47,699 nucleotides of DNA, taken from positions 8,374,567-8,422,265 of the forward strand of contig NC_057752.1 of assembly GCF_004010195.1 (NCBI RefSeq), read 5' to 3'. The position numbers were made by a program, and so were the translations under genes. Origin of the DNA: Chiloscyllium plagiosum (taxonomy: Eukaryota). Under the pieces are notes generated by a model. That model saw only the letters and a program-made list of their open reading frames with translations, did not search any database and was not told where the DNA came from. Of this stretch, positions 4,059-47,699 are shown piece by piece (the stretch's first letter is position 1; each line of letters opens with the position of its first letter).

Positions 4059-4098
4059 CCAGACGTTTCATTACCTGGCTAGGTAACATCATCAGTGG
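4059..4098 (-). ncRNA. Minimal type I hammerhead ribozyme motif, PLE family A, core intact
   Basis: CCA-CUGAUGA-U-GUUACCU-AGCC-AGGUAAU-GAAACGUC-UGG: stem I CCA/UGG, stem II hairpin, palindromic ACGU stem III, GUC cleavage triplet. Confidence 0.8.
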
Positions 4099-4562
4099 CG
4101 ACCTCCAAGTGAAGCGAAGCTGTTGTCTCCTGCTTTCTACTTATATGTTTTTTTGTCCTGGATGGGGTTCCTGGGGTTTCTGGTGATGTCATTTCCTGTT
4201 CGTTTTCTGAGGGGTTGATAGATGGTATCTAGATCTATGTGTTTGTTTATGGCGTTGTGGTTGGAGTGCCAGGCCTCTCGGAATTCTCTGGCATGTCTTT
4301 GCTTAGCCTGTCCCAGAATAGATGTGTTGTGCCAATCGAAATGGTTTTTTTCCCACTGTGTGTAGGGCTAAGAGGGAGAGAGGGTCGTGTCTTTTTGTGG
4401 CTAGCTAGTGTTTGTGTATCCTGGTGGCTAACTTTCTTCCTGTTTGTCCTACGTAGTGTTTCTGGCAGTCCTTGCATGGAATTTTGTAGATGACGTTGGT
4501 TTTGTCCATTGGCTGTACTGTATACCTGCGTATACAGAAAACCGACAAACACTGACCAAATA

Positions 4563-5500
4563 NNNNNNNNNNNNNNNNNNNNNNNNNNNNNNNNNNNNNN
4601 NNNNNNNNNNNNNNNNNNNNNNNNNNNNNNNNNNNNNNNNNNNNNNNNNNNNNNNNNNNNNNNNNNNNNNNNNNNNNNNNNNNNNNNNNNNNNNNNNNNN
4701 NNNNNNNNNNNNNNNNNNNNNNNNNNNNNNNNNNNNNNNNNNNNNNNNNNNNNNNNNNNNNNNNNNNNNNNNNNNNNNNNNNNNNNNNNNNNNNNNNNNN
4801 NNNNNNNNNNNNNNNNNNNNNNNNNNNNNNNNNNNNNNNNNNNNNNNNNNNNNNNNNNNNNNNNNNNNNNNNNNNNNNNNNNNNNNNNNNNNNNNNNNNN
4901 NNNNNNNNNNNNNNNNNNNNNNNNNNNNNNNNNNNNNNNNNNNNNNNNNNNNNNNNNNNNNNNNNNNNNNNNNNNNNNNNNNNNNNNNNNNNNNNNNNNN
5001 NNNNNNNNNNNNNNNNNNNNNNNNNNNNNNNNNNNNNNNNNNNNNNNNNNNNNNNNNNNNNNNNNNNNNNNNNNNNNNNNNNNNNNNNNNNNNNNNNNNN
5101 NNNNNNNNNNNNNNNNNNNNNNNNNNNNNNNNNNNNNNNNNNNNNNNNNNNNNNNNNNNNNNNNNNNNNNNNNNNNNNNNNNNNNNNNNNNNNNNNNNNN
5201 NNNNNNNNNNNNNNNNNNNNNNNNNNNNNNNNNNNNNNNNNNNNNNNNNNNNNNNNNNNNNNNNNNNNNNNNNNNNNNNNNNNNNNNNNNNNNNNNNNNN
5301 NNNNNNNNNNNNNNNNNNNNNNNNNNNNNNNNNNNNNNNNNNNNNNNNNNNNNNNNNNNNNNNNNNNNNNNNNNNNNNNNNNNNNNNNNNNNNNNNNNNN
5401 NNNNNNNNNNNNNNNNNNNNNNNNNNNNNNNNNNNNNNNNNNNNNNNNNNNNNNNNNNNNNNNNNNNNNNNNNNNNNNNNNNNNNNNNNNNNNNNNNNNN
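4563..5500. other. Assembly gap
   Basis: Run of N. Confidence 1.
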
Positions 5501-5548
5501 ATATAAATAGAAAGCAGGAGACAACAGCTTCGCTTCACTTGGAGGTCG

Positions 5549-5588
5549 CCACTGATGATGTTACCTAGCCAGGTAATGAAACATCTGG
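5549..5588 (+). ncRNA. Hammerhead motif, family A inverted copy, mutated (GAAACAUC)
   Basis: Same as 4059-4098 except a G>A change that destroys the ACGU palindrome. Confidence 0.65.
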
Positions 5589-6549
5589 ATATCAAACCTA
5601 CAGCTCAGTGAGCAAACCTACACCCTAAACCTCAACCTGAGCTACAAACCTTCACAAACCGGGAAGGTCACAGTTGGCCTTCCCATCCCACTGCAAAATG
5701 AGGCAGCTAATTGGCCCCTGCTACCAAATTCCCCACCACCACCAACCCATCTCTCGTCACTCATGGTCAGGTCCCTTCATGAACCTGAATCTCTGATGGG
5801 TTCATTACTAATAGTAGCTAACTGGTATTGTCATTTATTGAGGCTAACCATAAAATTGTGAATTAAATAATGTAACAAAAGAATGCAAAACAGGTAATAA
5901 GAATCTACGTCTGACAAAATTAACCCCTATTAACAAGGTCATTCAATGAGGAGCATAGTTCTCTCGATACCAACTGCCTTGAATTACCCAAAGCAAATTA
6001 TTATTCAAGTGTGAATATAACAAGCAAAGATCGACAAGCTATTCGACAGTGGGAAGAACCAGAATCAAGCGTGATTCTGTCTCTCAGGATGTCTACATGT
6101 TCCCTTTCCATGTTACTGGATAGCAGATAGCAGTGAGAACCTTGACTGATGATCCCTTCTGTTACTAGGACTGAGGTCAATTGAAGGTCCGTCTTCTGAC
6201 CAAAGCTAGCACTCTGAGGTCAACCAGCACAGACTGGGGTCAGACCAGACTTCCCAAGCTGTATATTATGATTGTATAATAACTGTAATAACTGAGCCCA
6301 CCATGGAATGGAGACTTGAAGCTCTGCCTCAAAAACTTGGAATAGGCACACATTTGTGCGTTGCTGAAGGAAAGAAAAACAAACTAACTGTGTGGGAACC
6401 TTTTCCTTGTTCAAGAATAGTGCATCAACTACCGTAATTGTAAATCACACAGCGGCCTACTCCATATTTTTTGATCCAGTAGGAAAGGATGACTATGTGA
6501 CCAGAATGACAAAAACGTTAAAATTACATTAAATGAATACTAGTTTTAC

Positions 6550-6663
6550 CTTTTTGAAGTTGTGTTATCCTTTGTTTTGTTGCTCTCTGTATTCATACTG
6601 AGTGCCTTCCAAACTGTAGATTTAGACATTTCATCAGAGATATTAATTTCAGATGGATCACAC
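6550..6663 (-). CDS. slc4a8: SLC4A8-like C-terminal exon (CDPSEINISDEMSKSTVWKALSMNTESNKTKDNTTSK)
   Basis: tttgattatag| acceptor and AG|gtaaaa donor; 114 nt, phase 2/2; matches the recalled NDCBE-A motif RCDPSEINISDEMPKTTVWKALSMN. Confidence 0.92.
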
Positions 6664-9395
6664 CTATAATCAAAGTTGAGGTGCCATAATCAAGAAAGAG
6701 ATTATCAAGATTTTAAGAAAATTCTAACAGATTAATACATAATCAACTCAACAGTATCATTTCCAATTCCAGTCACATAATAAAGGCAGTCAGAGAACTG
6801 TTTTCAGCTCAGAGAATGGGCAAGTGAGCCGAAGATTTGTTTAGAGCCACTGCTGCTATAACTCCTGAACAGTGGTGTTTACTATGAGTTGTGGTGCTGT
6901 TTCATTTTCACTACTGAGGAAAATCTCCCCTCCCAACTTCAATTTACAAGACACAATATGCTGTGGGGCATGCATCCAAATCTGAATACTACTACTTATA
7001 TTAAATTGTTGAGTTTTTGTAAAACAAAAATGAATATGGTTTTAATTACATTTCATAAGTTTAACCCAGCAGTCAGCATGTCTGCATGACTGAAATATAC
7101 TTTTTCACATAATAAAACCATGATTATCACTTCAGTAGGACACCAATCATTTTACATCTCAGCAGAATGAAGATTCTCAAATATTGTGTTAGTAATTCAT
7201 ATCTGGAATTTTGTCCATTTGTTTAATTATTTAACAAGCAAAACGAGTGTAATGTGGAGAAACTTGTACTGCGTGCACTAGTTCAGTATTTGCCCTTTTT
7301 TTGCGCTTATTTCAAAATTGCTTCTTGCATTAGCAGTATTAAGGGAGGTTCTGTGGCCAGGTGCAGTCTATATGACCAGTGTTCTTGCCACTGGAACTTA
7401 TATTTACCCTTTTTACCACTAGCACACTGGCTGCTGCATGTACTATCTTTACATATACTGTAGCAATTTACCAAGCTTAATGCAGTAGCATTTTTTAATC
7501 CTATGAAATTTCGCACCAAGAAGGCCAAGAGCAGCAATGTCTTGGGGACAGGAACATCTCCAAGTTCCCATTCAAGGCACACCATCCTGACTTGACATTA
7601 TGACTGTTGCTTCATCATCAGTAGGAGAAATTCCTGGTATTTCCTACTTTCAGTAGAACAGTAGCAGTGGAGGAGGAGTTCCATGACCACTTTCTTATAA
7701 CAACAAGTAAGCCCTCACTATTGAGGCCAAGATCATCCCAAATAAACTGAAACATAGCACAATGACTGGTCATGCAGAATACACTGTTAGGCTACAGACT
7801 GTGAAATTTATTTTATTTTGGCATGTGCTGTATTGTTGTTCCGCTACATAAAAACTTTGAAACATAGAAAATGTAACTATTCCACAACAATGGAAGTTCC
7901 ATTCAAGTAGTGATACTTCCATGCTTATTTAAATTACTCAGCTGAAAATACTTTCAAAACATAATGAATTCTGTACCAAAGCGTTACACTAAAATTATAA
8001 TTTCAGAAGCACAACCAAATTATATCTTCCCTGTGCGAGTGTAAAATCTTTCACTACATACCTCATGAAGAATTCTGTACTGGAAATGTGATTTGCTGCT
8101 TTCTATTTTAAAAACATACTCATCTGTTCCAGGACTTGTTGGATATTCATGTTGGATCTGGTAATAAATGTTATTAAATATGCAACAAGAAGCACTGTTG
8201 CAGTTTTAAACTTGGGACATCAATATTTTATTCACTAAAAGGCAGGAACTCAGGAAATAAACAGTCTTTTAGGATTTCCCATATGCTCAGCTTGTCAACC
8301 AAAACAAAGAAACATAGATTCTACATGCTGTACAGCAATATTAGCAGTGTTTTGCAGATTTCAGTTTTTAAATCCATGGTTAACAGGTGAACAACTGGTG
8401 CATTCACTATATTGCAAGTATGTACAAATTGTGCGCTCTTTGCAATGCATTTTACTTTGCATAAGTTCCATTCAAGAAAATAGCGCAAATCTTCAAGTCA
8501 CTGACATTTTAAATAATTTTTCTTTTATACATCTTTAATATACATGTCTGGAATATCATTGCAACAGATAATTAGCTTTAGTGCACAAAAAGGCCACACG
8601 TATCTTTCTCCATTAGAGAGGGACAACTGGCTATATGTAGCTTGAAAAGCACCTGAAAAAAAGCATGGGGCAAGTCGAGGAGAAACGCTTCCATTAACTA
8701 CTAATTGTAACACATATCCAAAGGATTGAGACAATGCTGGCCTGGATGATACTTTTCTTGCGCAGTAATAGGATGTTGCTGATGGCACGCATTGCATTTT
8801 TTGTAATACTGCTGGTAACGACAGTGCATTCAATACATTCTTGCATTGTTTTACCATAATTATAGAATTAGCCGCCAGAGTATGAAGCTGCAAGATATGA
8901 AATATTTTTTGAACATACTGGTTTGGAGTCATGCCTCAACATAATTGTACAACATTGTGAACTCGTCGTAAAAATCTTTGGACAACAGGTCATTAATTTT
9001 TCTGGTACACTTATAATTAATCAAACTTGCTGTTTTGGTAGTTTGGCATTACAGTGTACCGACATTAATGGCAATGACAAATATCACTTTACTTGGTAGA
9101 CAAGTTAACTATAAATAGGAAACACTCAGAAACTGGCAATATACTTACGGATATACTCTATATTTATAGAGAATATCAAATCTGATCCATTTACACAGAC
9201 TGGTATTTTTAGAATTTAAAAAATTACTTATTACTTAGTTAATGCAATTTATATTTCATTTTCATATGTGATATCATCTGGGTAAGAAATGGCTGGAAAT
9301 GTTCAAGACAAACAACATTAAAAACATCGCTATGGCAACTATTGAAGCTCTACTAAGTAACCGTGAAGTATTAGAAACACTATTGACTAGATTAC

Positions 9396-9493
9396 CTATA
9401 AATATTACTCTTTACTGGGCTTTGAAGCAGTTTTCTACTTTCCATTGGTAGGTGCACACCACCGTCCCCTGGTTCCAGCATTTTCTCTGATTC
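9396..9493 (-). CDS. slc4a8: SLC4A8-like C-terminal exon (ESEKMLEPGDGGVHLPMESRKLLQSPVKSNIY-R)
   Basis: ctctctctaatctag| acceptor and AG|gtaatc donor; 98 nt, phase 0/2; aligns with the recalled human NDCBE-A EAEKMLE...PLESRKLLSSP. Not shown in the ORF track. Confidence 0.9.
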
Positions 9494-12066
9494 CTAGATT
9501 AGAGAGAGATACAAACACTGTTATAGACTGAAAAAAAACCCGACCAATAACGGGTTGTTGTTCTGCTAAACCAAATCCACAATTTTATAAAAATGATGAT
9601 TAATACTGATCCTAGGATATTATTGTACTATAGTGCCAAATCATTACACAGATATCGCAATTAAGAAGTGGGTTTTTTTCTGTATGAGGGAGGTGGCTCT
9701 GAGAACCTTGTCATGACTGAAGTCCATATCTTTTCAGCATATTCTATTATTTATGTAACTTCAAATACTGGGAAATGCCAAATTGTTCTTATTTTTGAAA
9801 AAGATCACAAATTCCATGCGCTAAAATATATTTTTGCCAGTTTTATTCAGAATTTTCTACATCATACAAAAATGAATTGTGTATTTAATCCTAATTAAGC
9901 ACAGACTAGGATGATTTATAAACTACTTCATCATGTTTCAGACATTTTAACTTTTTAGTTCATCAAAATAATTTGTGAATTAACTCTATTTAAGTAATGC
10001 CAAAAAAGTAAATCAACCCACAAAATGTGTGATGCATGGCTTAGTATAGTTTCCTTATTTTTCAAGGAGAGACACAAAATTGTGTGGAGAAAGTGAGGTT
10101 TGTTTACAATTGTTACTCGTATTCTCATTTGTTGTTTGTAAAATAAAGCAACTTAATGATTTGAGTCAGACCCGGTTTCACCGAGCGTTTATCAGCTTGT
10201 CTACTGAAAAACATGGAATATGCAAAAATCTTAACGAATATTTCCAAACTATGTAATCTGAGAATTGTGATTTGCAGTGTCCAAAAGACATATCAATCTA
10301 ATTCAGATCACAAGTTAATTACATTTAGTTAATTTGTCAATAGAGCCATTGAAAGGTTACAGTACAGAAAGAAACCATTTAGCCCGTTTTGTGCTTGTGC
10401 TAGCCGAATAAACTCTAATCTGAAATTTAGAAAGCCAGATAATTATATAAATGTATATAATGAAATTGAACAGACTATATGCAAGATTACAAAGATTCTA
10501 TTTTGAGATTGTTAATTCAGTGCTTGCCTTTAAATTATTGAATTGAACTGGGGTGTCAAACATGGATAGACTTCAAAGAAGCATGCTTTTGAAACAGATG
10601 TCAGAAGCCTTAAAGAAGAATGAACTTCAGGAATGCATTACAAGTGTTTCAGGTGTGACTGTAAATATCAATGCGTGACAAATTGTTCGAACCAGAATAA
10701 GAAGGCTTTCAAAATGACATATGACACGGAAGGTTCAAAAGGAGAAAAGAGTGATACTGAAGAGTGATCACACTGAAGAATTTGTGCTGGTCACAAAAGG
10801 CTTTAGCCCAGTAAGGAATGTTGTAGCTACAGATGCACTCAATTTCATTGTGTAAGTTAGTGGATGGACTTCAAGTGTGTGGAGTGGCTTGGTTAAAATG
10901 TTATGTAGGTTCTTTGAATAATAAGTATTGCAAGAAATGTCCACAGCAAATACCTGGTTCTGCTAAGGTCTCCCTTGGATATATAAACTGCCACTGATCC
11001 TTTTCATAATACTGGCCAAAGGGACTTAATGATATTAACTGGTAAAGGATGAACTATTCATATAAGTTCTCAACAGAACAGACAAAATGTTGAGTTAGAA
11101 GAAATAGTTCATTACATTGCTATCTAAGATAACAGGCTACATTAGCGTCAGACTGGTTAGCTGTATTATGCTTAGCAAACGACAGTAGTATCTCCTAACA
11201 GATACTTAGCTAATAAAAGTTACATGCTTGTTAACAGTAAGAGATATGATAAACAGATGGGAACAACTGCAATGGACAACTAGTGCCAATTAAAAACCAA
11301 AAGAATTGTAGAAGCTGGAAATCAGAAACAAAAACAGAAATTGCTGGAAAAATTAAACAGGTCTGGCAGCACTTGTGGAGAGAAATTAGAGTTAACTTTT
11401 CGAGTCCAATTGACTAGCTTCTCCCAGACACAATCACATATTTCTCAGTAGGCAGAGATATACAAGGTTTCAAAGTTAAACCTTTCAGGCCTACAACATC
11501 TCCTCTAAGATATTTTCCGTTGTTTAACCAATTATACAACTGCTTTAACAAGTATATCAAGGTTGATAATTCTTCCAGCCAGTGCATATGTTGGACTCAG
11601 AGCACTGATGTGAGTTTTGAGGACGGTGGATTCAAACTTTGATCATTACTGGAGTGAATTCTGAATAATCTTCTCATGATGTTCATCATTAGGTTCATCC
11701 CACTGCAGTAGTAAAGGGCTACAGTTTGTGCAGTGATAAGGCTTTTGCAATTTCTGTGCACAGTTCTCTCCAATGTGTTGACAAGATATAAACGTTGTTG
11801 ATCTGCCAATTGTTGTATCACTATCATTTTTATTGAGATCTCTTATCTACACTTGTTGCTGTGGGCCCAGTTTGGCAACTGTTCAGTGCAGTAATATTTA
11901 TTATACTAAGTAGCTAGCTGCTGTAAATAATGCTGTCCTTTACAGTGAGCATTCTTATAGTCTTTGAGATTCATCGGAGTCAACTTTTTTGGAAGTATGG
12001 GAAGCTAAGGTTTCAACCTTCTTCCACAGTGGATGTTCTGAACTGATAGTTCAGCAAAGCTGTACA

Positions 12067-12500
12067 CAGGCAGTCTCCAGGTTGTGAATGGGGTAAAAGC
12101 AATGACTGCAGATGCTGGAAACCAGATTCTGGATTAGTGGTGCTGGAAGAGCACAGCAGTTCAGGCAGCATCCAAGGAGCTTCGAAATCGACGTTTCAGG
12201 CAAAAGCCCTTCATCAGGAATATTGTTTTTAACCCTACTGTGAATCCTCTTGCAAGGATGCCTGCCTTGAAGAAGTTTTCCTCCTCTCTCTACAGGTTGT
12301 GAATGGGTTCCGTTCTTGAGTCTGTTTGGAGGTTGATTTGTACACAAGTTGGAACACAATGCAGAACAGTTTAAAGTAGCCATTCGTAAGTACAGGAAAT
12401 TTTTGTATGTCATATCTTTAAAACTACATCCCTATATGGGATCGTGTCCATAAGTAGGAGCATTTATAAACTGGACGTTTGTAAATCAAGGACCCCTTGT
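12067..12500. mobile_element. Probable Tigger/pogo-like MITE, host of the 12093-12292 PLE insertion
   Basis: Degenerate inverted termini caggcagtctccaggttgtgaa / tttgtaaatcaaggaccccttgta. Confidence 0.45.
12093..12292 (-). mobile_element. 200-bp non-coding PLE family B derivative carrying a hammerhead motif (12186-12221)
   Basis: Pseudo-LTR homology to 16279-16410; CUGAUGA-A-GGGC-UUUU-GCCU-GAAACGUC; 15-bp TSD caggttgtgaatggg at 12078-12092 and 12293-12307. Confidence 0.85.
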
Positions 12501-12759
12501 AGGAATCAATGTTCTCATCAAAGATCCAAATCAGGGATCTTGTGAACATAAAATAATTCACTTAGTACTGTAACAAATGCATTAGTGGTTGTATGCATTT
12601 TAAAAATCTCAATCTACTAAGAGTAATAATTAACAGCAATGAGACAAGAGCATCATAAATGTATCGAACATAAATGGGTCAGTTCCCATTTGTTCTCATG
12701 ATCTAGTATGGACGTTATTAGAAATTAATGGCTCTCTATGTGTATGTCTGTGTATAGCA

Positions 12760-14900
12760 CTTACAATGAGCTTTGAGATCTTCTATTTCTTTTGCAATCC
12801 GAGCTCTGGACTCTGAATTTTGGTAATACCTAAATATCCCTGATGTACCTTATCAGGTCAAAGTGAAGGTGGAACGATCAGTCTGTCATCAAATCCAATA
12901 AGTCATCTATAATAGTGAAGTGTTATCGATGTTTGAAGGAAAGCTTCATAGTCAAGCCATTGGGCTTTTTCTCAGCTAACCATTGACACAGTAACTGATG
13001 AATGGTGACACATTCTGGGTCATTTTTTTGCTCCTGTTTGATGTGATTTAGTCTTTGCTCTATGAATTAAATTCACAGACAAAGTCTTAATTGGCCTTGT
13101 AAAGTTGTCCATAGTAGCTCTGGAGAAGGCATTTTCTGACTTTTGCAGCTTCCCTTGAAATCTCTGTATTGAGAAGGCATCTTTGCAACTCCTTTCCATC
13201 TAAAAGGGATACCAGTGGGTTATGGTCAGTTTCTATGACAACATTGAGACCTAGAATGTAATCTGAGAATCTCTCATATGCCCAGGTGACTGAGAGAGTC
13301 TCTTTCTCAATAACTACATATTATGTTTCAGTATCAGACAATGCTCTGAATGGATAATGTCCTGGTTTCCTGTGTCCTTTTGCTTGTTCCTAAAAGAGCA
13401 CTGCATTATACCTGTGGCTAAAAGTATCTGCAGTAATAATAATTGGGAACAATGGATTAAATTGGGAACAATGGATTATACTGGGTCAGGAGGTCTGTGG
13501 AAGTCAGCATGTCTTTGATTCTTTGAAAGCATCTATTTGACTCATGACATTTTTAGTCTCAAGGGTTCAACTGTGATTGCCAAATGAAGCAAGAAATTTG
13601 ACAGATGATTATCCATGCCTAATTATCTTTGTTAATTATGTACTGGTTATGGATTAGGAAACTCCTCAAGAGCTGTCCCTCTTCTGTTCTTATATTGGTT
13701 TTATCTGTGATGTGTCTGGAAGTTTTTTTTTAAACTCGTGAGACACGAGTGTTCCTGGCTGGCCAGCATTTATTGCCCATCTTTAGTTGCCCTTCAGAAG
13801 GTGGTGATGAATTGCCTTCTTGAGCCCCCACAGTCCATGTGCTGTAAGTTAACCCACAATGTTGTTATGGAGGGAATTCCAGGATTTTGACCCAGTGACC
13901 ATGAAGGAATGGCGATATGTTTCCAAGTCAGGATGGTGAGTTACTTGAAGGGGAACTTGCAGGTAGTAGTGTTCCTGTGTAGATTATAATTTTACATTTT
14001 TCAACTGAAGGTGTTTTGTTGGATAACACAGTGACACTTGATCCTCTGTCATGCCTGGTTCAGATGGGTCACCTAATTTCTGTGGTGTTTCACTGGAAGG
14101 AGGAATGTCACCATCTAAATATGCATGTTCTAATGGAAATATGTCTTGTGAATCACAATTTTTTATTATTGCTTTACAGTGGTTTTGTGGTTTATTTATT
14201 GTTCCTAAGCATTGTTCCTGCATATTTTTTGAAAACATCCCACTGTCTTGCAAAAGTGACATTCTTGTGATAGAGCTGCACATTCATTTTGTGTGGTGTT
14301 TTTGCTCCACATCTTGGGCAATGACTTCTGGCATCAAAAGATTTGAGCACATCTTTCATTGGTTCATCTTGTGATTGATTAGAGCGTTTTGTAACTTATG
14401 AAGGTGAGAGATGTGGTTTTTTTGTATCTCAGCTTCTAAAACAAGCTGGATAGCCTTTTCTGACATGAGACCTTCTTTTAATTATAAAAGCTCTGAAAGA
14501 TGAATTAGAAATTTTGACAACAATTCTATTTCTAATTAGTTCTAGTTGTAATGCTCCATATTCAAAAGATACATACAATATGTACAGATCATTGATGAAG
14601 CTGTCAACAGGCTCTCCTAGAAACTGTATTCTTTCATTGAATCTTGCTCTCCATAATATGATTGCGTCTTAAAGTGAAAGAATTGACAAATACTTTAAAG
14701 TCAAATGGATCAGTATCTATTTCAAGTTTTTGTCCATTAATAGTCTGCTAATGGTTCCACAGAATAAGGCAGTATGTTAATTTGTTCTGCTTGTGATTTG
14801 GTGTGTGGACCTGAAGCAATTCTGTATCTCATGAATTGTTTCTTCCATGTTGACCAATTCTCTGTCAGGTAACATTGCATCTGCCATTTCTGTGTTTAAA
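12760..14900 (-). mobile_element. Highly decayed Gypsy-like internal region
   Basis: Gag-like ERARFNERIQFLGEPVDSFINDLY near 14580-14655 and a protease-like RGSSVTVLS remnant near 14020-14050; boundaries approximate. Confidence 0.6.
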
Positions 14901-16373
14901 ATAAATTGTTTACTTTAATTGTAAAAATCGTTAAGAATTTATATAATTTCTACTGTATCTTCAGCTTTTTATCTTTAAGTTTGAACTATGGCTTCAAGCT
15001 GGTATAAATCTTTTTTAAAATAGCAATTAAATTTTAATTACTGATAAACTGGATTAAATCTTCCAACGAAGCTTTAAATTGTAATTGATTGTTATTTTAA
15101 GAAAAATTTAAGAATTTTCAGGTGTAAATAAAACTTTGTTTAAGTTTCAAAATTATTATTTTCAATAAAATCATCTTCTGCATTTGACTTTTATATTCTA
15201 ATAAGAACAATTGTACTGCTGGTTTAAATAATTTATTGAAGAATAACCTCATTTTAGAAGAATTGTCCTGAATTTTTAATGTTGAAAAGATGCTTGTTGG
15301 ATAAATAAGATGATTTATGCCCTCTTTCAGTTTCCAGAATTTTACCATAAAATTAAGCATTTTCATCTTTCTACTGAGACTTACTTCTGGAGTCCAATAT
15401 GATGTACATTTTTCCTGGGTCATGACTCGGATTTTCCTGTTCAGCTTTAGTAAGACTCCTTCTGGTCTTCACAGACTTTGAAGTACATTTTATTCCTAAT
15501 TCTGGCTGACTTATTCTTGTACAGAAGGCTTTTCCAGCTGTGATCTGCTACTGCTGCAAGAGCTGACTGGACCTGTGTTGTGAGGGGTTGCAGATGTCAG
15601 ATGCTAATATCCATGAATGAGAGCTGCATGCAGATGCTGCCCATGGATATTGCCCTGAGATGCTGTTTGGTCCTGAGCAACATGAAGGCAATACACTGAA
15701 ATTGCTGAGTACCTGCTGATTTCCGTGTTGAGATTATTTGACATCTAGCTTGATTAATGTGTTTGGTAAAATAGGAAGGTGAATATTAATGAGGCGAGTT
15801 GTAGTTTTAATAAGGCATTTAACAAGCAATATTCCCTCTTAACTAGCAACTTGCCGCTGCCTAGTGAGAAACTTGCCTCATTCTTGGCAGATGCATAAAA
15901 GTTGGAGCAAGATACTCCCAATATTGAGACAAGCCTCGCTAGACTTCTCATTCGATTTTGCTACAAATCTCATCATAGCCCACATCGCTCAGATGCCTGT
16001 GAGACTGCGCCCAAGGCTACCCATTGGATGCAAAAAAGCAATGGAGTTTAATTCAGGAAATTTTAAACAAGTTGACAAAAATAGCATATTGACGACTTGT
16101 ATCAAGTTACCTGTAACATATTTGGTAAATTACTAGTTGAGTGTAGTATTATGCAAATGCATGATTTTGCATGTAACTGTATAGTTGAAAAGATTATCAA
16201 AATATGAAACTTTTTTTACATTAATTGAACATCAACAGCCGACTTGGTGAAGGGAAAGACAGTCTAGGGTAGTACTTAGAGGAGAAAGTGAGGTCTGCAG
16301 ATGCTGGAGATCAGAGCTGGAAATGTGTTGCTGGAAAAACACAGCAGGTCAGGCAGCATCCAGGGAACAGGAG

Positions 16374-16409
16374 AATCGACGTTTCGGGCATAAGCCCTTC
16401 TTCAGGAAT
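16374..16409 (-). ncRNA. Minimal hammerhead ribozyme motif, PLE family B, core intact
   Basis: AUUC-CUGAAGA-A-GGGC-UUAU-GCCC-GAAACGUC-GAUU. Confidence 0.8.
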
Positions 16410-16500
16410 GGGGAAAGTTTGTCCAGCAGGCTAAGATAAAAGGTAGGGAGGAGGGACTTGGGGGAGGGGTGTCGGAAATGCGATAGGTGGAAAGAGGTCA

Positions 16501-17070
16501 NNNNNNNNNNNNNNNNNNNNNNNNNNNNNNNNNNNNNNNNNNNNNNNNNNNNNNNNNNNNNNNNNNNNNNNNNNNNNNNNNNNNNNNNNNNNNNNNNNNN
16601 NNNNNNNNNNNNNNNNNNNNNNNNNNNNNNNNNNNNNNNNNNNNNNNNNNNNNNNNNNNNNNNNNNNNNNNNNNNNNNNNNNNNNNNNNNNNNNNNNNNN
16701 NNNNNNNNNNNNNNNNNNNNNNNNNNNNNNNNNNNNNNNNNNNNNNNNNNNNNNNNNNNNNNNNNNNNNNNNNNNNNNNNNNNNNNNNNNNNNNNNNNNN
16801 NNNNNNNNNNNNNNNNNNNNNNNNNNNNNNNNNNNNNNNNNNNNNNNNNNNNNNNNNNNNNNNNNNNNNNNNNNNNNNNNNNNNNNNNNNNNNNNNNNNN
16901 NNNNNNNNNNNNNNNNNNNNNNNNNNNNNNNNNNNNNNNNNNNNNNNNNNNNNNNNNNNNNNNNNNNNNNNNNNNNNNNNNNNNNNNNNNNNNNNNNNNN
17001 NNNNNNNNNNNNNNNNNNNNNNNNNNNNNNNNNNNNNNNNNNNNNNNNNNNNNNNNNNNNNNNNNNNNNN
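16501..17070. other. Assembly gap
   Basis: Run of N. Confidence 1.
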
Positions 17071-17303
17071 GGGCATCGTCGACCACGTCGGGGGGGAAAT
17101 TGCGGTCCTTGAAGAAGGAGGCCATCTGGGTTGTGCGTTTTTGGAACTGGTCCTCCTGGGAGCAGATGCGGCGGAGTCGAAGGAATTCCAGTCTGACCTA
17201 TCACCCTCACCTTGACCTCTTTCCACCTATCACATTTCCGACGCCCCTCTCCCAAGTCCCTCCTCCCTACCTTTTATCTTAGCCTGCTGGACAAACTTTC
17301 CCC

Positions 17304-17339
17304 ATTCCTGAAGAAGGGCTTATGCCCGAAACATCGATT
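17304..17339 (+). ncRNA. Hammerhead motif, family B inverted copy, mutated (GAAACAUC)
   Basis: attc-ctgaaga-a-gggc-ttat-gccc-gaaacatc-gatt. Confidence 0.65.
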
Positions 17340-17656
17340 CTCCTGTTCCCTGGATGCTGCCTGACCTGCTGCGCTTTTCCAGCAACACATTTCCAGCTAG
17401 GGTAGTACTTATGCAATCTATGTACCAATATACATGCCACAAATGTTCCTGATGGCTTGAAGACCCCAAGCAAAATCTCTAGTTATAAACTTTCACTAAA
17501 ACATCAAAATAAATTTCTCATATATAAGTATTATTTTCTTCTGAGATGGGAGAGCACATTGAAGGAATTAAAGCATTGACTTTCTCTCCCTTTAATCGCA
17601 CTCTAGTTCCGCATATTCATTCCCTGTTGTAATCCAATGTGATAATCAAATCTTAC

Positions 17657-17791
17657 CCCATCCTCTTTGACTTTTTTGGCATCGTCCAGTTTTTTCTTCT
17701 TACTTTCAGGCATTAGATCATCAAGCCAGCTTAGCTCACGCTTCAGAAAGCAAAGGTCCATCAATTTTCTAACAAAAACTAGAGCTAATAC
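17657..17791 (-). CDS. slc4a8: SLC4A8-like exon (VLALVFVRKLMDLCFLKRELSWLDDLMPESKKKKLDDAKKVKEDG)
   Basis: atattgcag| acceptor and |gtaaga donor; 135 nt, phase 0/0; ELSWLDDLMPESKKKKLDDAKK is characteristic of SLC4A8. Confidence 0.95.
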
Positions 17792-18739
17792 CTGCAATAT
17801 ATCATCAGAGATCAGGTTAAGAAATATTGAGGGCATGCACATAGCAGTTGAAAAAGGTTCATTGTTAACAATTAAATTTAATACATATACTAAAACAAAA
17901 GTACACAATTCCTTTCTCACAAGGCAGACCTTCACTTTTGTCATTTTTCCCCAGTTGTTAAAAGGAGAAATGCAGTTTACTGCTTTGCCACATAATGCTA
18001 CATAGAAGTGGCATATATAATGGGTATCACAATCCTTGTTACATTATCTGTTGCTCAATTGGATCAGTATTCCAGCACACACAAAATCTAGTTACCACAG
18101 AAGACCAATGTTAATATTTACATTAGTATTTTTCATCAATAAAATTCATAAATACCAGTAATTATAAACAATAAACAGTATTAAAATTCAATGTTAGCAT
18201 ATACTAATATCTGAGGTTGAAAGACCTAATGACATAAGAGAAATTCTTCATTCTTTTTGTAATTCTTTTGCATTTTTCGTTCAAATGTACAGAAATACAG
18301 AATTCTGCAAGTATTTATGGGAGATTGTTCACTCCAATATACAATGACCAACCATCCTGCTAGCTAGGCACAAATTAGTGAGCAAGAGGCACTTAATATG
18401 TGAAAAAAATGCATTTTTCACAAATCCAGCAGTGAAACAAGAAAGTTGTCCAGAATATATGGTAGAAAACTAAAATGCCCCACAAACTCTTAAATGCATG
18501 TAGGTGTGCCAAATTAGCCTGTTTGGAGTCAGGAAATAGTGTATTAAGTAAAATTACATTCAATGCAGGAAGAGATCGCATGAATGAGGAGTTGTGCGTC
18601 CACCATATTTGGTTTGAAGTGATGCTGTGAGGCCTTAAGTGAAAGGTTAACAATTATTTTTAATATGAGATCCTAAACAAAGTTGCAGCTATGAAGAAAT
18701 ATATACAAGATCAGCAACATTCAGAAGACTCAATAAAGA

Positions 18740-19420
18740 AACAGAAATAGGCCATTCAGCCCTGAGCTTGTTCTGCCATTCAATTAGATCATGACTGATC
18801 TATGACCTAATTCCATATACCCGTCTTTGCCCCATTTTCCTTATCATTCTTTGGATATAAATCTAAGATATAAAGCTTACAAGTAATCTAGCATAATTTG
18901 TTAGTTGTGGAAGAGAGATCCAAACTTCTACTACCATTTCTGTGTTGGGGTGTTTACTAAGGTGTTTATTAATGTCACTCCTGAAAGATCAGACTCTAAG
19001 TTTTAGACTGTGCCACTTAGTTCTGGACTCCCTTATCTACCCTATCTATTCAGTTTTAAAAACTTCAATCAATTGATCCATTTATCTTTTAAATTCCAGA
19101 CAATACAGCCATAGTTTGTGTAACCTCTGAGAATATAACTCTGGGAATCCAGGTATCATTCTGATAATTCCACATTGCACTCTCTTCCTAGGACAGAGTG
19201 GACTAGTTGTACCGAAAGGTCTGTTTCCAAGCTATATGACTCTCTGACTCTCCCTAATGTATGGTACCCAGAACTGCTCATAAGATTTTAGGTATGGTTT
19301 TATGAGATATTTGCATAGGTACAACATACTTTTACCCTTTAATGTACTCTAGGTCTCTAGCTCAAAAGGCCAGCATTCCTTTAGATTTTAAAAATTATTT
19401 TCTGTACCTGTTCATGGTAT
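18740..19420 (-). mobile_element. Old CR1 3' fragment
   Basis: ggccattcagcc...ccattcaattagatcatgactgatc tail similar to 20280-20340 and 40650-40700. Confidence 0.65.
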
Positions 19421-21039: not shown

Positions 21040-21204
21040 CTTATGATTTTGCTGCATGACTAATGTGTTATATATCTAGTCTTATTCTCTAACTAAATTC
21101 TATATACTCATCATAATGGTTGCTGTCAACTCTGCAAATTGAATCCCTACAGTAGGTGATCGAAAGATACAAATGTTAAAGGAATTTATCAGTGATCTTG
21201 AGGA
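21040..21204 (+). repeat. 165-bp direct copy of 19708-19872 inserted in a CR1
   Basis: Five substitutions in 165 nt by eye, no indels. Confidence 0.92.
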
Positions 21205-24200: not shown

Positions 24201-24270
24201 GTCCTGAATACACCCTGTCAATTTTTGCTCATGGCTATCTTTGCCAACTTGACTTTCCCAATCTATGAAT

Positions 24271-28661: not shown

Positions 28662-29382
28662 CTGGAAAAAGCAAGATTTAATAATTAAAAGGGTTGGTAA
28701 CTTTCAAAAGATCAGGCTCATCCATAGTATTCATTACAAAATTATATTGTGTTAAATTTGTGAAACCATTATCAGCCAAAGGAAAGATTTTTGAATTAAG
28801 ATAATAAAGTAAGCAACAAACATCTTCAGGTGTAATGCAGTTTGCATCTTTCCAAAATTGTTGTGTGAGGGGAGGAGAAAAAGAAGTTAATATAAATGGG
28901 TACTAAAATATGTGTCACTCAATTTTGGGAATATATTATACTGAAACACGTTTGATACCTGAAAAAAAAGTCCAGTTTGTCTGCTTGCCTTTTTGCTTCT
29001 AAATGAAACCAACCGGTAATTTACTCTTTTACACAGTAGAAGTAAATTCATAATGCCTTTTCTAACAATGCTGAATATAATGTATGAAGAAAATGAGACT
29101 TTGTTTAATTTTCTATTTGAAATGATGTCTCTAAATTTGCTAAATTATGCAAAGCATATTAACAATTGAAATTCTACAATTATGAAACTCAACATTAAAT
29201 AGCACAAAATTGTTTACTTGTTTGACAAAGCAGTTAAAATATTTGGGTTCCAGAGAAAATAATGAATATACAGTATATTTTCTTCATAGTATTAAATACT
29301 ACTGTATTACAAATTTCATATGGCGAGTATAATTCTGCTACATGTTGCAGTGGAAAGTCTGTTTTCTGAATGTACTCCTCAC

Positions 29383-29451
29383 CTGAATTCCTTTCAGTGA
29401 TGAGACCCCCATGTAAAGAAAGACTCCATAAAGCACTGGCATCGGAATGAA
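29383..29451 (-). CDS. slc4a8: SLC4A8-like exon ([23 protein letters not shown]), transmembrane region
   Basis: Minus strand reads ...tattcacag|TTC ATT CCG ATG...ATT CAG|gtgagg; 69 nt, phase 0/0; peptide is the conserved SLC4 Na+/HCO3- transporter motif. The upstream exon was not found in the window. Confidence 0.95.
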
Positions 29452-33185: not shown

Positions 33186-33191
33186 ATCAGT

Positions 33192-40014: not shown

Positions 40015-40080
40015 TGAAAGGTTTGTGTTTGTAATGGTTAAATAAGTGATCTACTAACCATTACAAACATAAACCTTTCA
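40015..40080. repeat. 26-bp inverted repeat with 14-nt loop
   Basis: tgaaaggtttgtgtttgtaatggtta (40015-40040) pairs with taaccattacaaacataaacctttca (40055-40080), with one G-U pair. Confidence 0.9.
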
Positions 40081-42730: not shown

Positions 42731-43240
42731 GCCGATAGTTGCACTTCCTCATAAGATTGTGGCTAATCTTTATAAATACTGCACTAGTTATAATAAAAAG
42801 AAGTGCTGTTCAAATTCTTCTTCATCAGGACTTGCAATGTTAACTCTGTTTCTCTCTCCACAGATGATGAAAGACCTGCTGAGTTTCTACAGCACTTTCT
42901 GTTTTTATTTCAGATTTCCAACATCCGTGGTATTTTGTTTTCATTTGTTATAAAATGCTTTGGCACAGTCTGCAGTAGTGAAAGGAGCAACACAGATGCA
43001 AATATATTTTTCTAAAAGTGAATTTAAAAATAGGCTTCACCAAAATAAAATACCACAAATGAGACAAATACCACAATGGCCAAATGGAATACTCTAAGTT
43101 TGGATGTGGAAGCTGAGAGTAAATGCCTGTAAATCAAGTCATTGGGCAAAATCTTCCATTTTCATTGGGTGTCTCAATAACTTTTTAGCAAGTGACTGTA
43201 ACTGTTGAAGGCAAGGCCTGCTGTATCTTTCTCCAATCAG

Positions 43241-43374
43241 GGTCTAGATTAGAGTGGTGCTGGAAAAGCACAGCAGGTCAGGCAGCAGCCGAGGAGCAGG
43301 AAAATCGACGTTTCGGGCAAAAGCCCTTCATCAGGAATAGAGGCAGGGTGCCTGCAGAGTGGAGAGATAAAAAG
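43241..43374 (-). mobile_element. 134-bp non-coding PLE family B derivative carrying a hammerhead motif (43303-43338)
   Basis: CUGAUGA-A-GGGC-UUUU-GCCC-GAAACGUC; 12-bp TSD ttctccaatcag at 43229-43240 and 43375-43386. Confidence 0.85.
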
Positions 43375-43799: not shown

Positions 43800-45079
43800 A
43801 AACTGGTGACAAGTATAAAGTTTTGTGAGATCCACTGGAGCAATCCACAGATTTGTCAAAAAAAATCATGGTCCTAACTGCAGATCTTGGAGGCATTTTG
43901 ATAAAAAGAAGAAAGGAAATCAAAATATGCTATCACTGCACTTTGGCAGGTACCTGTCAATAGAAAAAGAATTCACCCAAGAAGAGTTGAACAGTTCAGA
44001 AGAAGGTCGCATGGGCTCCACCCTGAAGGAACACTGTAATGCATACCCTACAGGGAGGGAAACGTTTTGAGTTGGGGTGTTTATTTTAAATGTAAAGAAG
44101 TGAGACAGTGCTAAACTGTTTCATGGTACATCATGCTACACAGGCCCTTCCCACTTAAAAAACAAATGAAATAGCAAGAACCATATGGTGAAAATACAGA
44201 AAGCAGGAACTCCTACACAGAGAGTTTCTAATATTTTGTTTGAGCTAACAAAATTGAAGCAGATATACTAGCTTTCCTGAGTATTGTGAGGTGAGAAACT
44301 TTTAATTTCCTAAGGAGTCTGGTACAGCCAGAGAAACTGGGTTCCAACACTTACAATGAAATCATAGGAATCCTACAGAACCATTTTTCACCAAAACCAT
44401 CGGTGATTGCTGAAAAGGATCAGATTCCACAAACACAACCAGCATGATGGTGAATCTACCTCCCAGGCTAGTCACAATTTTAAAGAAGTTAGCAGAATTT
44501 CACAAATTGGAATACAAATGATGTTATCAAAGATAAACTGGTGTGTGGTTTAAGATGTGAAGCAATCCAGAAGACATTACTGACAGAAAAGGAACCTAGA
44601 CTTAAAGAAGGACTGGAAATGGCAGTCTCAATGGAACTAGTGGCCAATGAAGCTCAACAGCTAAGCTCAAGCATGAGAGTTCATAAAATAGCAGATGAGA
44701 TTCAAAACTGCCAATGGTGGGGAAAAACAAATCATGCGACAGCAAATTGCTGGTAGAAAGAAGCTGTATGTAGAAACTGCACCAAAAAAGGGCACATTGA
44801 ACAGATGTGTTTAAGGAAGAAACATGAGCAACTCATAGCAAAAATACAGAAACTGAAGAGCAGGAAGAAAATCTACACAGGACAAGAAGGGCATGAGAAA
44901 AGCCCAGAGTCTCAGTCCAAAGACGATCTGTTATTAAAGATATTATCCATCGTTGATGACACCAATTGATGCTGGATCACTCCCTTAATGAATGGCAAAC
45001 CAGTAAGAATGGAGTTGGCACATGAAGCAGCGGTTTCATTGATATCTGAAAGCGTGATCAGAAGCAACTATGTCACATT
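43800..45079 (+). mobile_element. Decayed Gypsy gag-protease, interrupted by a hAT transposon
   Basis: LQNHFSPKPSVIAE; CGLRCEAIQKTLLTE; zinc knuckles (CQWWGKTNHATANC, CRNCTKKGHIEQMC); protease-like NGKPVRMELAHEAAVSLISE; PBS-like actggtgac at about 43802. Confidence 0.85.
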
Positions 45080-46792
45080 CAGTGTTCCCTCTAATTTTCT
45101 GGGGCCCACTGGAACCTGGAGTAATCTGTGCAGGATATTGCATTCCATTGAGCAGAAGTCATATTGCAATTTTTTTTCAGTTTGTTTATTAAGTATTAAA
45201 AGTGTGCATTCATATTATTTTACAGTTACAGGTAATCTATCTGCATACAACAATTTTTTTTTTGCAGTGTTAACTATTAAAAGTGTGCAGTTATATTGTT
45301 TACAACTACGGGTATTCTACCTGCTAAAATAAACAAAACTGCTTCACTCAGAAGTCTGGGGATATGTTTACTGGTGTACAACACATACTACGTGACCAAA
45401 AGAAGACACTATTAATTTATTCACTCCTTTGTTGACAGCTTTTCACACCTATCTTTATTTACTGCGCAATGATTGTATACTATATTTAGGTTTATATTTT
45501 ATCCAGATCAAAAGTATGACTTAATTTGCATCAAGTTGTCTAAGTGGACCATTTCTACTCTCTTTCTGAATTTACACTTAATCAAGTTCATGAAGCTAAA
45601 TCCATGCATACAGTCAGCACTGGATGCTTGAAATGTTGCACAAATGTCCAGAAGAATAGACATTACTTGGGACTGATTGTCTTTCAAAACATATTCCACT
45701 AAATCATTTATCATCTAAATGGAAGCTATCTTGACTTTTTCCACAACCATAGATTGGAAATCAGTGTGTCATTGTGGCCAAACTTTTGTCATAATATGGT
45801 ATAAAATGAAATATTTTGATTACAGTTGCATAATACTGTCTTTTTAAAAATCATATTTGATTGTCCTGGCGAATGCAGCCTGATTAAATGCATTTCACTC
45901 ATGTAATTCCTCTTCTGGAAATCTGCTTTCCAGGTGGCTATATAGCAGTTGAATAAATCGAAGGATTAAAGCAGGGTTCACATCACTATAGAGAGCAGTG
46001 AGAACTTTCTTAACTTCCTCACTCCAATAAACGTGTTCAGTTTATTGATCTTGGCCTTTGCAAATTGCATAACTTCGATCATTGTCAAACAGATTCTCTG
46101 CAAGAATTTGCACAGTAATGCCAGTTCACCAAGGACACTATTCAGAGCTGGCAATGCAAGGTGATAATGTGGCATTATGAGCATTTTCAGGCAATACAGT
46201 ATTTGTTTATTGGATTGTTGCACTTAGTTCACTTGCCCTATGCAGTACTTGATCAAGACATTGTAGTTTCGCATCAATATGCACCCTGCAAGGTGTCTTG
46301 ACAATCACATCACTTCATTCACAGGTCAAAATGCGACTCTACATTACACTCAAACTTTGGAAAAATCTTCAAATTGCCTTTTCTTCACAATTGATCTGCT
46401 GAACATCGTATATACTGTTATTAGAAGCATTTCAATACCTTGCATAATTGACATCTGCATCTGAACATCATTTATTCCAAGCTCTTCTGTGATCAATGCA
46501 ATACTGTTGCAACAAACAATGTTCCAAGGTTGCAGCTACTCTAATTTTCTTTCCCAGCAAAACAGAAGGTCCTTTTGATGTAACCACCATCTTCTGTAAA
46601 TCAAGGTTACTGTTCACATAAAATTGTTTGATTATTGTCACAATGGAGAGAAACACTGTTGTCAGCAGTCAGTTTCAATGTTCCTGCAAAGACTGTCGTG
46701 TAAGCATGTTCAGAACCTGGTCAAAACTTGATGTACAAAATCAACATTTTTTGTACTGAAATGACTGTACTTTAATCCGACAATCAATGAAT
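45080..46792 (-). mobile_element. hAT-superfamily DNA transposon, 3' part with decayed transposase
   Basis: TIR-like start CAGTGTTCCCTCTAATTTT at 45080; hAT C-terminal dimerisation-like ILLDICATFQASSADCMHGFSFMNLIKCKFRKR...LDNLMQI. Confidence 0.8.
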
Positions 46793-47475
46793 GATGACAA
46801 GTGTGGAAGTACAGGTAAATCTCTGTCGGATGTGGAAGGATCCTTTGGGGCCTTGGATGGAAGTGAGGAGGGAGGTGTGGGCGCAGGTTTTGCACTTTGT
46901 GCGGTGGCAGGGGTAGGTGCAGGGAGTGGAGGGTGGGTTGGTGGGAGCGTGGACCTAACAAGGGAGTCGCAGAGGGAATGGTCTCTGTGGAAAGCAGATA
47001 GGGGCAGGGAGGGAAATATATTTGGGTGGGGTCTGTTTGTAGGTGGTGGAAATGGCGGGGGATGATGCGATGCATCTGGAGATTGGTGGGGTGGAAAGTG
47101 AGGACCAGGGCATTCTGTCGGTGTTGTGGTTGCAGGGGTGGGGTTTGAGGGTGGAGGACCGGGAAGTGGAAGAGATGTACTGGAGGACATTGTCGACCAC
47201 GTGGGAGGGGAAATTACGGTCCTTGAAGAAGGAGGCCATCTGGGATGTTCTATGGTGAAATTGGTCCTCCTGGGAGCAGATGCGGTGGAAGCAGAAGAAT
47301 TGGGAATAAAGGGATAGTGTTTTACAAGAGGCAGGGTGGGAGGAGGTGTACTACAGGTAGCTGTGGAAGTCGGTGGGTCTGTAGTAGATGTCCGTGTTGA
47401 GTCTGTTGCTGGAAATGGAGATGGAGAGGTCGAGGAAGGAGAGGGAAGATGTCTGGGATGGTCCAGGTGAACTTG
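46793..47475 (-). mobile_element. Degenerate PLE family B ORF fragment (RT thumb, linker, start of GIY-YIG region)
   Basis: Frameshifted translation LKFTWT...FLDLSISISSNRLNTDIYYRPTD...MASFFKDRNFPSHVVD...PLSAFHRDHSL...QGPKGSFHIRQRFTCTST. Confidence 0.85.
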
Positions 47476-47699
47476 AGGAGAAAGTGAGGACTGCAGATGC
47501 TGGAGATCAGAGCTGAAAATTGTTGCTGGAAAAGCGCAGCAGGTCAGGCAGCATCCAAGGAACAGGAGAATCGACGTTTCGGGCATAAGCCCTTCTTCAG
47601 GAATGAGGAAAATGTGTCCAGCAGGCTCAGATAAAAGGTAGGGAGGAGGGACTTGGGGGAGGGGCTTTGGAAATGCGATAGGTGGAGGGAGGTCAAGGT
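47475..47699 (-). mobile_element. PLE family B pseudo-LTR (3' end) with intact hammerhead motif at 47569-47604; continues beyond the window
   Basis: Highly similar to 16279-16500, with the same gaggagaaagtgagg terminus. Confidence 0.88.

Follow-up and report, generated by a model that had tools for sequence, protein, structure and literature searches.

Hammerhead motifs in slc4a8 introns of the shark Chiloscyllium plagiosum are probably passengers of Penelope-like insertions, and their shared core change looks like CpG decay

Seven minimal hammerhead motifs were found in a 47,699-nt stretch of the Chiloscyllium plagiosum genome (hereafter the window). According to our preferred reading, to which we give a probability of about 0.85, these motifs are passengers of Penelope-like element (PLE) insertions and the G>A change shared by the two antisense copies results from CpG decay that takes place regardless of orientation. 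This shared change looks like common DNA decay, and not like a sign that the sense copies are kept active.

The first-pass annotation had described five core-intact motifs that are sense to slc4a8 and two antisense copies carrying the same G>A change, and a direct sequence check confirmed the coordinates and strands of all seven motifs, as well as this change. The pattern CTGANGA-N8-30-GAAACRTC matches exactly 7 times in the window, while 0.03 matches are expected by chance and 0/100 shuffles gave 7 matches. The core reads GAAACGTC in the five minus-strand (gene-sense) copies, compared with GAAACATC in both plus-strand (antisense) copies. The CUGANGA and GAAA core boxes with a bulged base before stem II are present in 7/7 motifs, and a loop-less palindromic stem III followed by NUH is found in five of the seven, being broken in the two copies that lie in inverted arms (see below). 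Stem I has 3 bp in the 2 family A copies and no more than 2 contiguous bp in the 5 family B copies. The predicted cut of the 4059 copy falls 3' of C17, between 4062 and 4061, just where it had been placed before, and the predicted C17 positions of the other sense copies are 12190, 16378, 43307 and 47573.

These motifs are located in PLE terminal repeats: the family A hammerhead is found directly downstream of a GIY-YIG remnant in insertion A, family B hammerheads adjoin RT/linker fragments in insertions B and E (read from translation, without a database match), and insertions C and D are homologous stubs. The seven motifs are minimal hammerheads of PLE terminal repeats, a kind that is already known, and their earlier assignment to the minimal type I class, in two PLE families and inside slc4a8 introns, is supported. 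With the metazoan PLE motifs described by Cervera and De la Pena (2014, PMC4209133), they share the type I core, the bulged base before stem II, a G-C or similar closing pair, the loop-less palindromic stem III, the short stem I and the mostly solo truncated copies; close opposite-strand dual motifs were also already described there. Unlike the closing pairs given in that source, stem II of family A is closed by G-U, and family B has a 4-bp stem II and 2 contiguous stem I pairs where 4-5 bp are given for Schistosoma; a 2-bp helix I is described there for D. virilis. Rfam covariance models gave no hammerhead match in the window at E<=1, and minimal motifs without stem III may fall outside those models. 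The sole Rfam match in the window was a weak U6 at 20020-20121. Two degenerate hammerhead patterns had 0 matches in metagenome contigs, and one such pattern had 0 matches in viral contigs. A non-LTR retrozyme was also considered and rejected: its units, of a few hundred bases, would form head-to-tail tandems, and such tandems were not found. Copies on one strand lie 4.2, 26.9 and 4.3 kb from each other and are bounded separately by duplications.

The host gene is slc4a8, on the minus strand, with its 3' part in the window (3206..29451), as identified by a Pfam HCO3_cotransp match and by a best PDB match to 7rtm, the electroneutral sodium bicarbonate exchanger 1. Using tblastn with 10 of 92 homologues, coding exons were mapped at 29451-29383, 28664-28485, 17791-17657, 9493-9395 and 6668-6552, with the last one at about 3226-3206 matching the C-terminus of P0001, and these homologues revealed no exon upstream of 29451 in the window. 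No public RNA dataset was found to contain the gene stretch 6200-10500. Considering this last exon, the motifs at 4059 and 5549 lie in the last slc4a8 intron, and a location beyond the gene end is ruled out. The motifs at 12186, 16374 and 17304 are within the intron 9494-17656. We infer that the gene continues upstream beyond the right end of the window, and that the 43303 and 47569 motifs are also intronic.

The young insertions that carry the motifs are all in the direction of the gene (5/5, P=0.06). Insertion A (4023..5660, minus strand) is a single PLE insertion. It consists of a direct terminal repeat (about 4023-4146), a GIY-YIG-coding remnant (4140-4560), an assembly gap (4563-5500) and an inverted arm (5501-5626) extended by a 34-nt tail to 5660, between 13-bp target-site duplications (4010-4022 and 5661-5673). 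The remnant matches GIY-YIG with E=0.002, under Pfam's cut-off, and its atlas matches (0.94-0.95) are to clusters in which 10-16% of the members have GIY-YIG. The core-intact hammerhead of insertion A is at 4059..4098 (minus; stem II of 7 bp), and in the copy of its inverted arm, at 5549..5588 (plus), a CpG transition alters the stem III palindrome. Insertion B (16279..17396, minus) comprises a direct terminal repeat with a 36-nt tail (16279-16500), a gap (16501-17070), an RT-coding fragment (17071 to about 17190) and an inverted arm (17213-17396), with 15-bp duplications at 16264-16278 and 17397-17411. Its core-intact hammerhead is at 16374..16409 (minus) and its inverted-arm copy, whose stem III palindrome again has a CpG transition, is at 17304..17339 (plus). 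Family-wide depth steps of family B fall at 16279-16281, 16316-16325 and 16409-16410. Insertion C is a 200-nt 5'-truncated terminal-repeat stub (12093..12292, minus; 15-bp duplication 12078-12092/12293-12307) with a hammerhead at 12186-12221, in which a CpG change makes one stem II pair G-U, and insertion D is a 134-nt stub (43241..43374, minus; 12-bp duplication 43229-43240/43375-43386) with a hammerhead at 43303-43338. In element E (46787..47699, minus), a terminal repeat with a hammerhead (47569-47604) and a tail, running from 47475 to beyond the window, is joined to a broken RT/linker fragment (47474-46787) that carries C-X4-C-X2-C and that had no Pfam or atlas match; Pfam searches of window fragments gave a match for 2/10 and 1/6 of them. 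By its motif pattern, this linker would be Neptune-type, as a CX2-5CxxC linker between RT and GIY-YIG is described as a Neptune-type pattern shared with Nematis (PMC8557442). Degenerate copies of a third family, with the core lost, were detected by blastn and nhmmer at 3871..3965 (plus), 11338..11431 (minus, gene-sense) and 42827..42897 (plus), using an nhmmer profile that included the 3871-3965 copy itself.

The idea that the seven motifs are seven independent insertions was rejected, since each antisense hammerhead belongs to the inverted arm of an insertion, A or B, whose other arm is the sense copy across the assembly gap. The two arms are 98% and 97% complementary in A and B, respectively, and 2/2 of these insertions display the inverted-pLTR layout, with an inverted repeat, a one-sided 30-40-bp tail and a flanking duplication, which is known for PLE insertions (PMC3846280, PMC8557442) and breaks assemblies (PMC8557442). 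A and B are textbook examples of this layout. They resemble the complex insertions described for PLEs with an endonuclease (Arkhipova et al. 2013, PMC3846280; Craig et al. 2021, PMC8557442) in the head-to-head inverted arm, the tail at one end, the duplication around the whole unit and the internal gaps, which here hide the interiors of A and B; shark duplications are of 12-15 bp, compared to the 8-10 bp given for rotifers in these sources. Caution is needed when counting such motifs: paired motifs on opposite strands are here arms of one insertion.

The core G>A is a CpG transition in both antisense copies, and the stem III palindrome holds the only CpG that is common to both families, so that both can show the same change there. 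Six of the 9 differences between arms are CpG transitions, affecting 6/22 CpG letters versus 3/290 other letters (P=4e-6), with 2/6 of the CpG changes being in the sense arm, and the CpG observed/expected ratio of the window is 0.21. Orientation effects were then analysed on public reads aligned to family B only (the commoner family), with two DNA runs from two organisms and RNA reads from one sample (a fragmented poly(A) single-cell library, duplicates retained); in the family B difference table, the core-CpG comparison covers G>A among the changes listed. A further run, X22, yielded 0 aligned reads. Of the summed contig depth, the core G>A took up 10.1% in one DNA run and 12.9% in the other; among RNA reads, it was present in 142/940 versus 104/685 by direction (15.1% versus 15.2%), giving an odds ratio of 0.99 (0.76-1.31, or 0.42-2.37 if one in ten reads is independent). 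Very similar values were obtained for the neighbouring CpG at G12 (8.3% and 14.3% in DNA; 135/892 versus 97/644 RNA reads; odds ratio 1.01), so that the sense-dependent conservation of a host-exapted intronic ribozyme was not seen in family B at either site. This lack of an effect answers, for the greater part, the refutation condition set by the first-pass annotation. Since other sites are up to 4.7-fold apart between RNA directions, a few abundant loci could shape both read pools.

Chance CpG decay, which the first-pass annotation had offered as its alternative, is favoured by this CpG spectrum and by the lack of a direction effect, and a meaning for the split between sense and antisense copies is not supported. 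On whether the change is independent of orientation, the family B RNA reads showed no effect, but the in-window split of 0/5 sense versus 2/2 antisense copies with G>A keeps its nominal P=0.048 (1-in-21), a value that is unchanged when the three degenerate copies are added (intact in 5/6 sense versus 0/4 antisense). At the measured rates, this exact in-window pattern had a prior chance of 0.6-1.0%, and simple arithmetic gives a chance of 0.44-0.59 that five young copies are intact at 10-15% decay per site. Two further observations speak against the preferred reading: the common direction of the five young insertions, which follows the gene (P=0.06), and the difference in C17 changes between read directions given below. 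In the literature searched by titles or abstract starts, we found no report of orientation-dependent decay of PLE hammerheads, and searches for Penelope hammerheads in a shark genome or for Penelope orientation bias in introns gave no match.

One may also propose that it is the arm that matters, the inverted arm losing CpGs, or the core of the hammerhead, more quickly than the direct one whatever the gene direction, through a separate, more error- or deamination-prone synthesis step or through heavier methylation. Both core changes are indeed in inverted arms, and the RNA-direction test is blind to such an effect because both arm types occur in both directions. CpG sites changed in 4/11 cases in inverted versus 2/11 in direct arms, but this difference, from two insertions only, gives P=0.64, and in insertion B the direct and inverted arms have 2 CpG changes each, making arm-specific loss improbable.

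The first-pass annotation had instead proposed that sense copies pair in cis through stem III and cut introns co-transcriptionally, altering slc4a8 processing or freeing PLE RNA; on that model, sense copies are kept intact while antisense copies drift. The in-window split agrees with this model, as do the computed pairing of intact stem III palindromes (-3.1 kcal/mol, versus +0.2 and +2.8 for mutated ones), two same-intron pairs with a compatible 2-bp stem I that lie 4.2-4.3 kb apart (12186/16374 and 43303/47569), sense reads that are not depleted (940 versus 685) and a C17 CpG change that is rarer in the sense-read pool (95/958 versus 99/674 reads, odds ratio 0.64, nominal P=0.004). A cis-pairing set made of the five copies is nevertheless not supported: the 4059 copy has no stem I match to the other family (0 stem I pairs in 4/4 cross-family pairings), and a 97-98% complementary arm comes before 4059 in the transcript, and likewise before 16374, with arm duplexes predicted at -248 and -389 kcal/mol, compared to -26 to -53 for the arms alone. 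With 16374 masked by its own inverted arm, only 43303/47569 remains as a pair. Moreover, neither the core G>A site nor G12 showed a direction effect, core loss is also seen in the gene-sense copy of the third family, and five intact young copies are often expected anyway. No pile-up of read ends was seen along 16230-16500 in family B, a weak null considering that contigs cannot show ends and that the RNA library was fragmented. We thus consider this model very unlikely.

Folding calculations, which leave out tertiary contacts and proteins, placed the fold with two hammerheads 9-18 kcal/mol above the minimum for the dimer in 11/11 same-family pairings, and cofolding gave inter-copy stem III pair probabilities of <=0.002 in 15/15 pairings, a result that we weigh lightly since models of this kind represent active hammerheads poorly. 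PLE hammerhead monomers are described as inactive, with low dimer activity (PMC4209133), and the hammerhead of Anolis Poseidon, which lies upstream of the tail as in the shark, was inactive without the element's protein, with no reads ending at its site (Frangieh et al. 2024, PMC11167929), as for shark family B. Activity was assayed for that vertebrate motif. Cutting by cis dimers thus appears unlikely from these models, as two sense copies are masked, 4059 lacks a compatible partner and the PLE hammerheads in the literature are weak or need protein. A-to-I editing was rejected as a firm claim.

It is highly improbable that either G>A call, or both, arose as an assembly error, from reads of other copies drawn into the consensus near gaps: both mutated copies do adjoin N gaps and the variant is common in the family, but both arms continue via a tail or repeat end to unique flanks with correct duplications, both retain private features of their partner arm, and the other arm differences show the same CpG spectrum.

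Altogether, the reading that we prefer, PLE passengers undergoing CpG decay, would unfold as follows. Five independent PLE insertions entered slc4a8 introns, four being bounded by duplications and the fifth leaving the window, and two of them placed an antisense hammerhead beside a sense one through their canonical inverted terminal repeat. The mutation spectrum suggests that copies were methylated after insertion and then underwent CpG decay. In family B, about one copy in eight carries the core change, in either RNA orientation. Within nascent transcripts, both inverted insertions are modelled as most likely zipping into 125- and 184-bp duplexes that would bury their sense hammerheads. By analogy with published elements, cutting by the remaining stubs, with a 2-bp stem I and partners at least 4 kb away, would probably be rare or absent unless the element's protein is present.

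The amniote conserved intronic ribozymes and CPEB3 (reviewed in PMC6765202) are self-cleaving and sense to their introns, like the model of the first-pass annotation. They are described as specific host-gene ribozymes, whereas the shark motifs belong to young transposon pieces present in very many copies, show no sign that their conservation depends on orientation and have no stable fold as monomers. Sense hammerheads kept intact in introns would have meant that, in a vertebrate, ribozymes from transposons act genome-wide on the pre-mRNAs of their host, which the literature searched does not show; since the orientation test found no effect, the value of our finding is modest: it gives a negative result, resolved by strand, for a PLE family with a very high copy number. 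It is unlikely, in our view, that hammerhead cores are stripped genome-wide from inverted arms while direct arms are spared and that intronic copies also shape host pre-mRNAs. If this were true, core stripping would record a distinct making or marking of the inverted arm; with well over ten thousand copies in introns, unmasked same-intron pairs such as 43303/47569 would cut nascent RNA, and masked pairs would form editable duplexes, often enough to influence how shark pre-mRNAs are processed, in the manner of inverted Alus in primates.

The first-pass annotation had described seven minimal hammerhead motifs, and all of them were recovered where it had placed them: five sense to the slc4a8 transcript, on the minus strand (4059, 12186, 16374, 43303 and 47569), and two on the plus strand (5549 and 17304). 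A strict pattern search returned exactly these 7 motifs in the window versus 0.03 expected, and an Rfam scan of the window gave no hammerhead match at E<=1. By their sequence features, they belong to the minimal hammerheads of Penelope-like elements (PLEs), with putative self-cleavage. The minus-strand host gene was also confirmed as slc4a8 by domain, structure and homologue matches: the exon at 28.5 kb matched the bicarbonate-transporter domain and, as best solved structure, electroneutral sodium bicarbonate exchanger 1, five exons were placed with 10/92 homologues, and the final coding exon, a sixth one at about 3226-3206, matched the C-terminus of a bamboo-shark protein. Since the exons reach down to this last coding exon, every motif below 18 kb falls within an intron, and we infer that 43303 and 47569 do too, as the window shows no further upstream slc4a8 exon. 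The penultimate coding exon could run into an in-frame stop at 6551-6546 if its donor was skipped, while the tiny last exon encodes six residues before a stop that overlaps AATAAA, two fewer than in other cartilaginous-fish proteins.

The two plus-strand hammerheads are not independent of the sense copies, as they lie in the inverted arms of the same insertions, so that the seven motifs correspond to five insertions. Positions 4021-4146 and 5501-5626 are 98% complementary, and 16315-16500 and 17213-17398 are 97% complementary. Each inverted pair has an assembly gap between its arms, is enclosed by a single target-site duplication (13 bp for 4059/5549, 15 bp for 16374/17304) and carries a 34- or 36-nt extension on one arm only. 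This is the inverted-pLTR-plus-tail layout of endonuclease-bearing PLEs, assembly trouble included, as described in the available text of PMC3846280 and PMC8557442, and that of PMC4209133 already notes minimal hammerhead pairs close together on opposite strands. Hammerhead 12186 sits in a 200-nt stub with its own 15-bp duplication, 43303 in a 134-nt stub with its own 12-bp duplication, and 47569 in a terminal repeat that runs past the window end and adjoins a broken RT/linker fragment. The fragment at 47474-46787 begins mid-RT and ends at the endonuclease start without a terminal repeat of its own, and the terminal repeat with its tail is joined to it directly, possibly through insertion of one element within or next to a second one. 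Family A (4059/5549) directly follows a GIY-YIG remnant (a sub-threshold Pfam hit with E=0.002; atlas 0.94-0.95), and family B (the other five motifs) has a C-X4-C-X2-C linker of Neptune/Nematis type, a candidate clade by pattern match. An older third family adds two antisense copies and one sense copy, all three with the core lost, scored with a profile that was built with these same copies and is thus not independent of them. The body faces the same way as the gene in 5/5 insertions (two-sided P=0.06), or in 6/8 once the degenerate third family is added (P=0.29).

Further repeats were seen in the window. The long upstream intron holds a tandem array at 39264-39990, made of roughly five units that are each 146-156 nt long and 60-76% similar to one another. 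Two 169-nt direct repeats (19708-19876 and 21040-21208; 96% alike, 1332 nt apart) flank LINE-like pieces and a weak U6 match at 20020-20121, and may mark both ends of a small composite insertion. Two short hairpins, at 25693-25809 (38-nt arms 41 nt apart) and 40011-40084 (30-nt arms 14 nt apart, 93%), are unrelated to the hammerhead families.

Both plus-strand copies share a G>A change in the stem III palindrome of the core, and this change is a CpG transition. Between arms, 6/22 CpG letters differ versus 3/290 other letters (P=4e-6), in a CpG-poor window (0.21); four of these CpG changes fall in inverted arms and two in a direct arm (4/11 versus 2/11 sites, P=0.64). Because the core CpG is the sole CpG within the motif that is common to families A and B, the same change in two families naturally falls there. 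The asymmetry is best explained, at a probability of roughly 0.85, by two insertions of real and already known elements having undergone CpG decay in their inverted arms. This is the alternative that the first-pass annotation had itself offered as chance CpG decay, and it is favoured by the CpG spectrum between arms and by the lack of a direction effect in family B.

The direction effect was assessed with public runs (two DNA, two RNA) aligned to 16230-16500 at 85% likeness, which covers family B only. Two DNA runs from two organisms gave 87,005 and 64,498 matching contig records, in which the core change made up 10.1% and 12.9% of summed depth and the change at the neighbouring CpG at G12 8.3% and 14.3%, as depth shares rather than copy counts. 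RNA counts came from one single-cell poly(A) run of one sample (3,305 reads with any duplicates kept, split by direction), the second RNA run contributing 0 matching reads; 93% of the matched reads continue into unlike sequence, as expected for embedded copies, with barcodes contributing. The two read directions are different molecule pools and the library behaves as stranded, since depth differs 2.6-fold between directions at the tail and three further sites show differences of 2.7- to 4.7-fold. The core change was found in 142/940 versus 104/685 reads (15.1% and 15.2%; OR 0.99, 0.76-1.31, or 0.42-2.37 with one read in ten counted as independent), and the G12 change in 135/892 versus 97/644. 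We assumed which direction is the sense pool from the usual behaviour of such libraries, and an odds ratio of 1 makes the conclusion independent of this choice. The proposed sense/antisense asymmetry thus does not extend to family B RNA, where the core change is independent of direction in a comparison blind to inverted versus direct arm. For family B, this is the outcome that the first-pass annotation had named, in the part concerning orientation, as refuting its proposal. Most family B copies are stubs spanning the hammerhead front to the tail; family-wide depth drops about three- to six-fold at 16409-16410, directly upstream of the core, and ends pile at 16279-16281 and 16316-16325, about 36-45 nt apart, downstream of it.

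Some results stand against CpG decay. Within the window, the core change splits by strand with P=0.048, a value that stays the same when the degenerate copies are included. The exact pattern, which was noticed after the fact, has a 0.6-1.0% chance at the measured rates. The two directions do differ in the C17 CpG change (95/958 versus 99/674 reads; OR 0.64, nominal P=0.004), as one of 10 rows tested, chosen from 40 shown; six were nominally unequal, indicating large pool noise. Under the established NUH rules, a C17 change would not abolish cleavage. The direction counts cover the rows listed and the reciprocal change at the core CpG is one of 61 further rows outside them, so that the symmetry of decay is not visible there.

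The same RNA reads displayed a T>C skew on the plus strand (A>G in the hammerhead sense) at 16311, 16349 and 16391, reaching 28%, 18% and 25% in one direction, compared with 8%, 8% and 11% for reads of the second direction and 1-8% for DNA; several A>G rows lean the opposite way. This skew fits A-to-I editing of inverted-copy duplexes, the DNA compared being from other individuals. However, a 5' G, which such editing disfavours, precedes two of the three positions, and the same skew could come from a single abundant locus.

The first-pass annotation had also proposed that several copies in one nascent transcript could pair in cis and cut introns co-transcriptionally. In a double hammerhead, stem I and stem III both form between two copies. 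The ends of families A and B form 0 stem I pairs in 4/4 cross pairings, leaving 4059 without a sense partner. The inverted arms are transcribed ahead of their sense partners and can form 125- and 184-bp duplexes, with computed energies of -248 and -389 kcal/mol versus -26 to -53 for the arms alone; 4059 and 16374 should then be buried. The five copies therefore reduce to 43303/47569 as the remaining pair, 4.3 kb apart in the same intron, with a 2-bp stem I and a computed active fold 12 kcal/mol above the dimer minimum. In the accessible parts of PMC4209133, minimal PLE hammerheads show no activity as monomers and low activity as dimers; in those of PMC11167929, the Anolis PLE hammerhead cleaves only with its protein and no RNA reads end at the site. 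No pile-up of read ends at the cut site was seen in the public runs on 16230-16500, which is weak evidence. Rare cutting by these hammerheads is possible, and an effect on slc4a8 finds no support.

Judged by titles and abstract starts, no report of orientation-dependent decay of PLE hammerheads was found; shark motifs may be listed in the supplements to PMC4209133. PMC6765202, as far as its available text goes, reviews intronic ribozymes for which host roles have been proposed. In the portions available, a 2026 preprint describes retrozymes of a related kind from a cartilaginous fish, along with a depletion of retrozymes from Xenopus introns. This depletion, if it points anywhere, suggests that active intronic copies are selected against.
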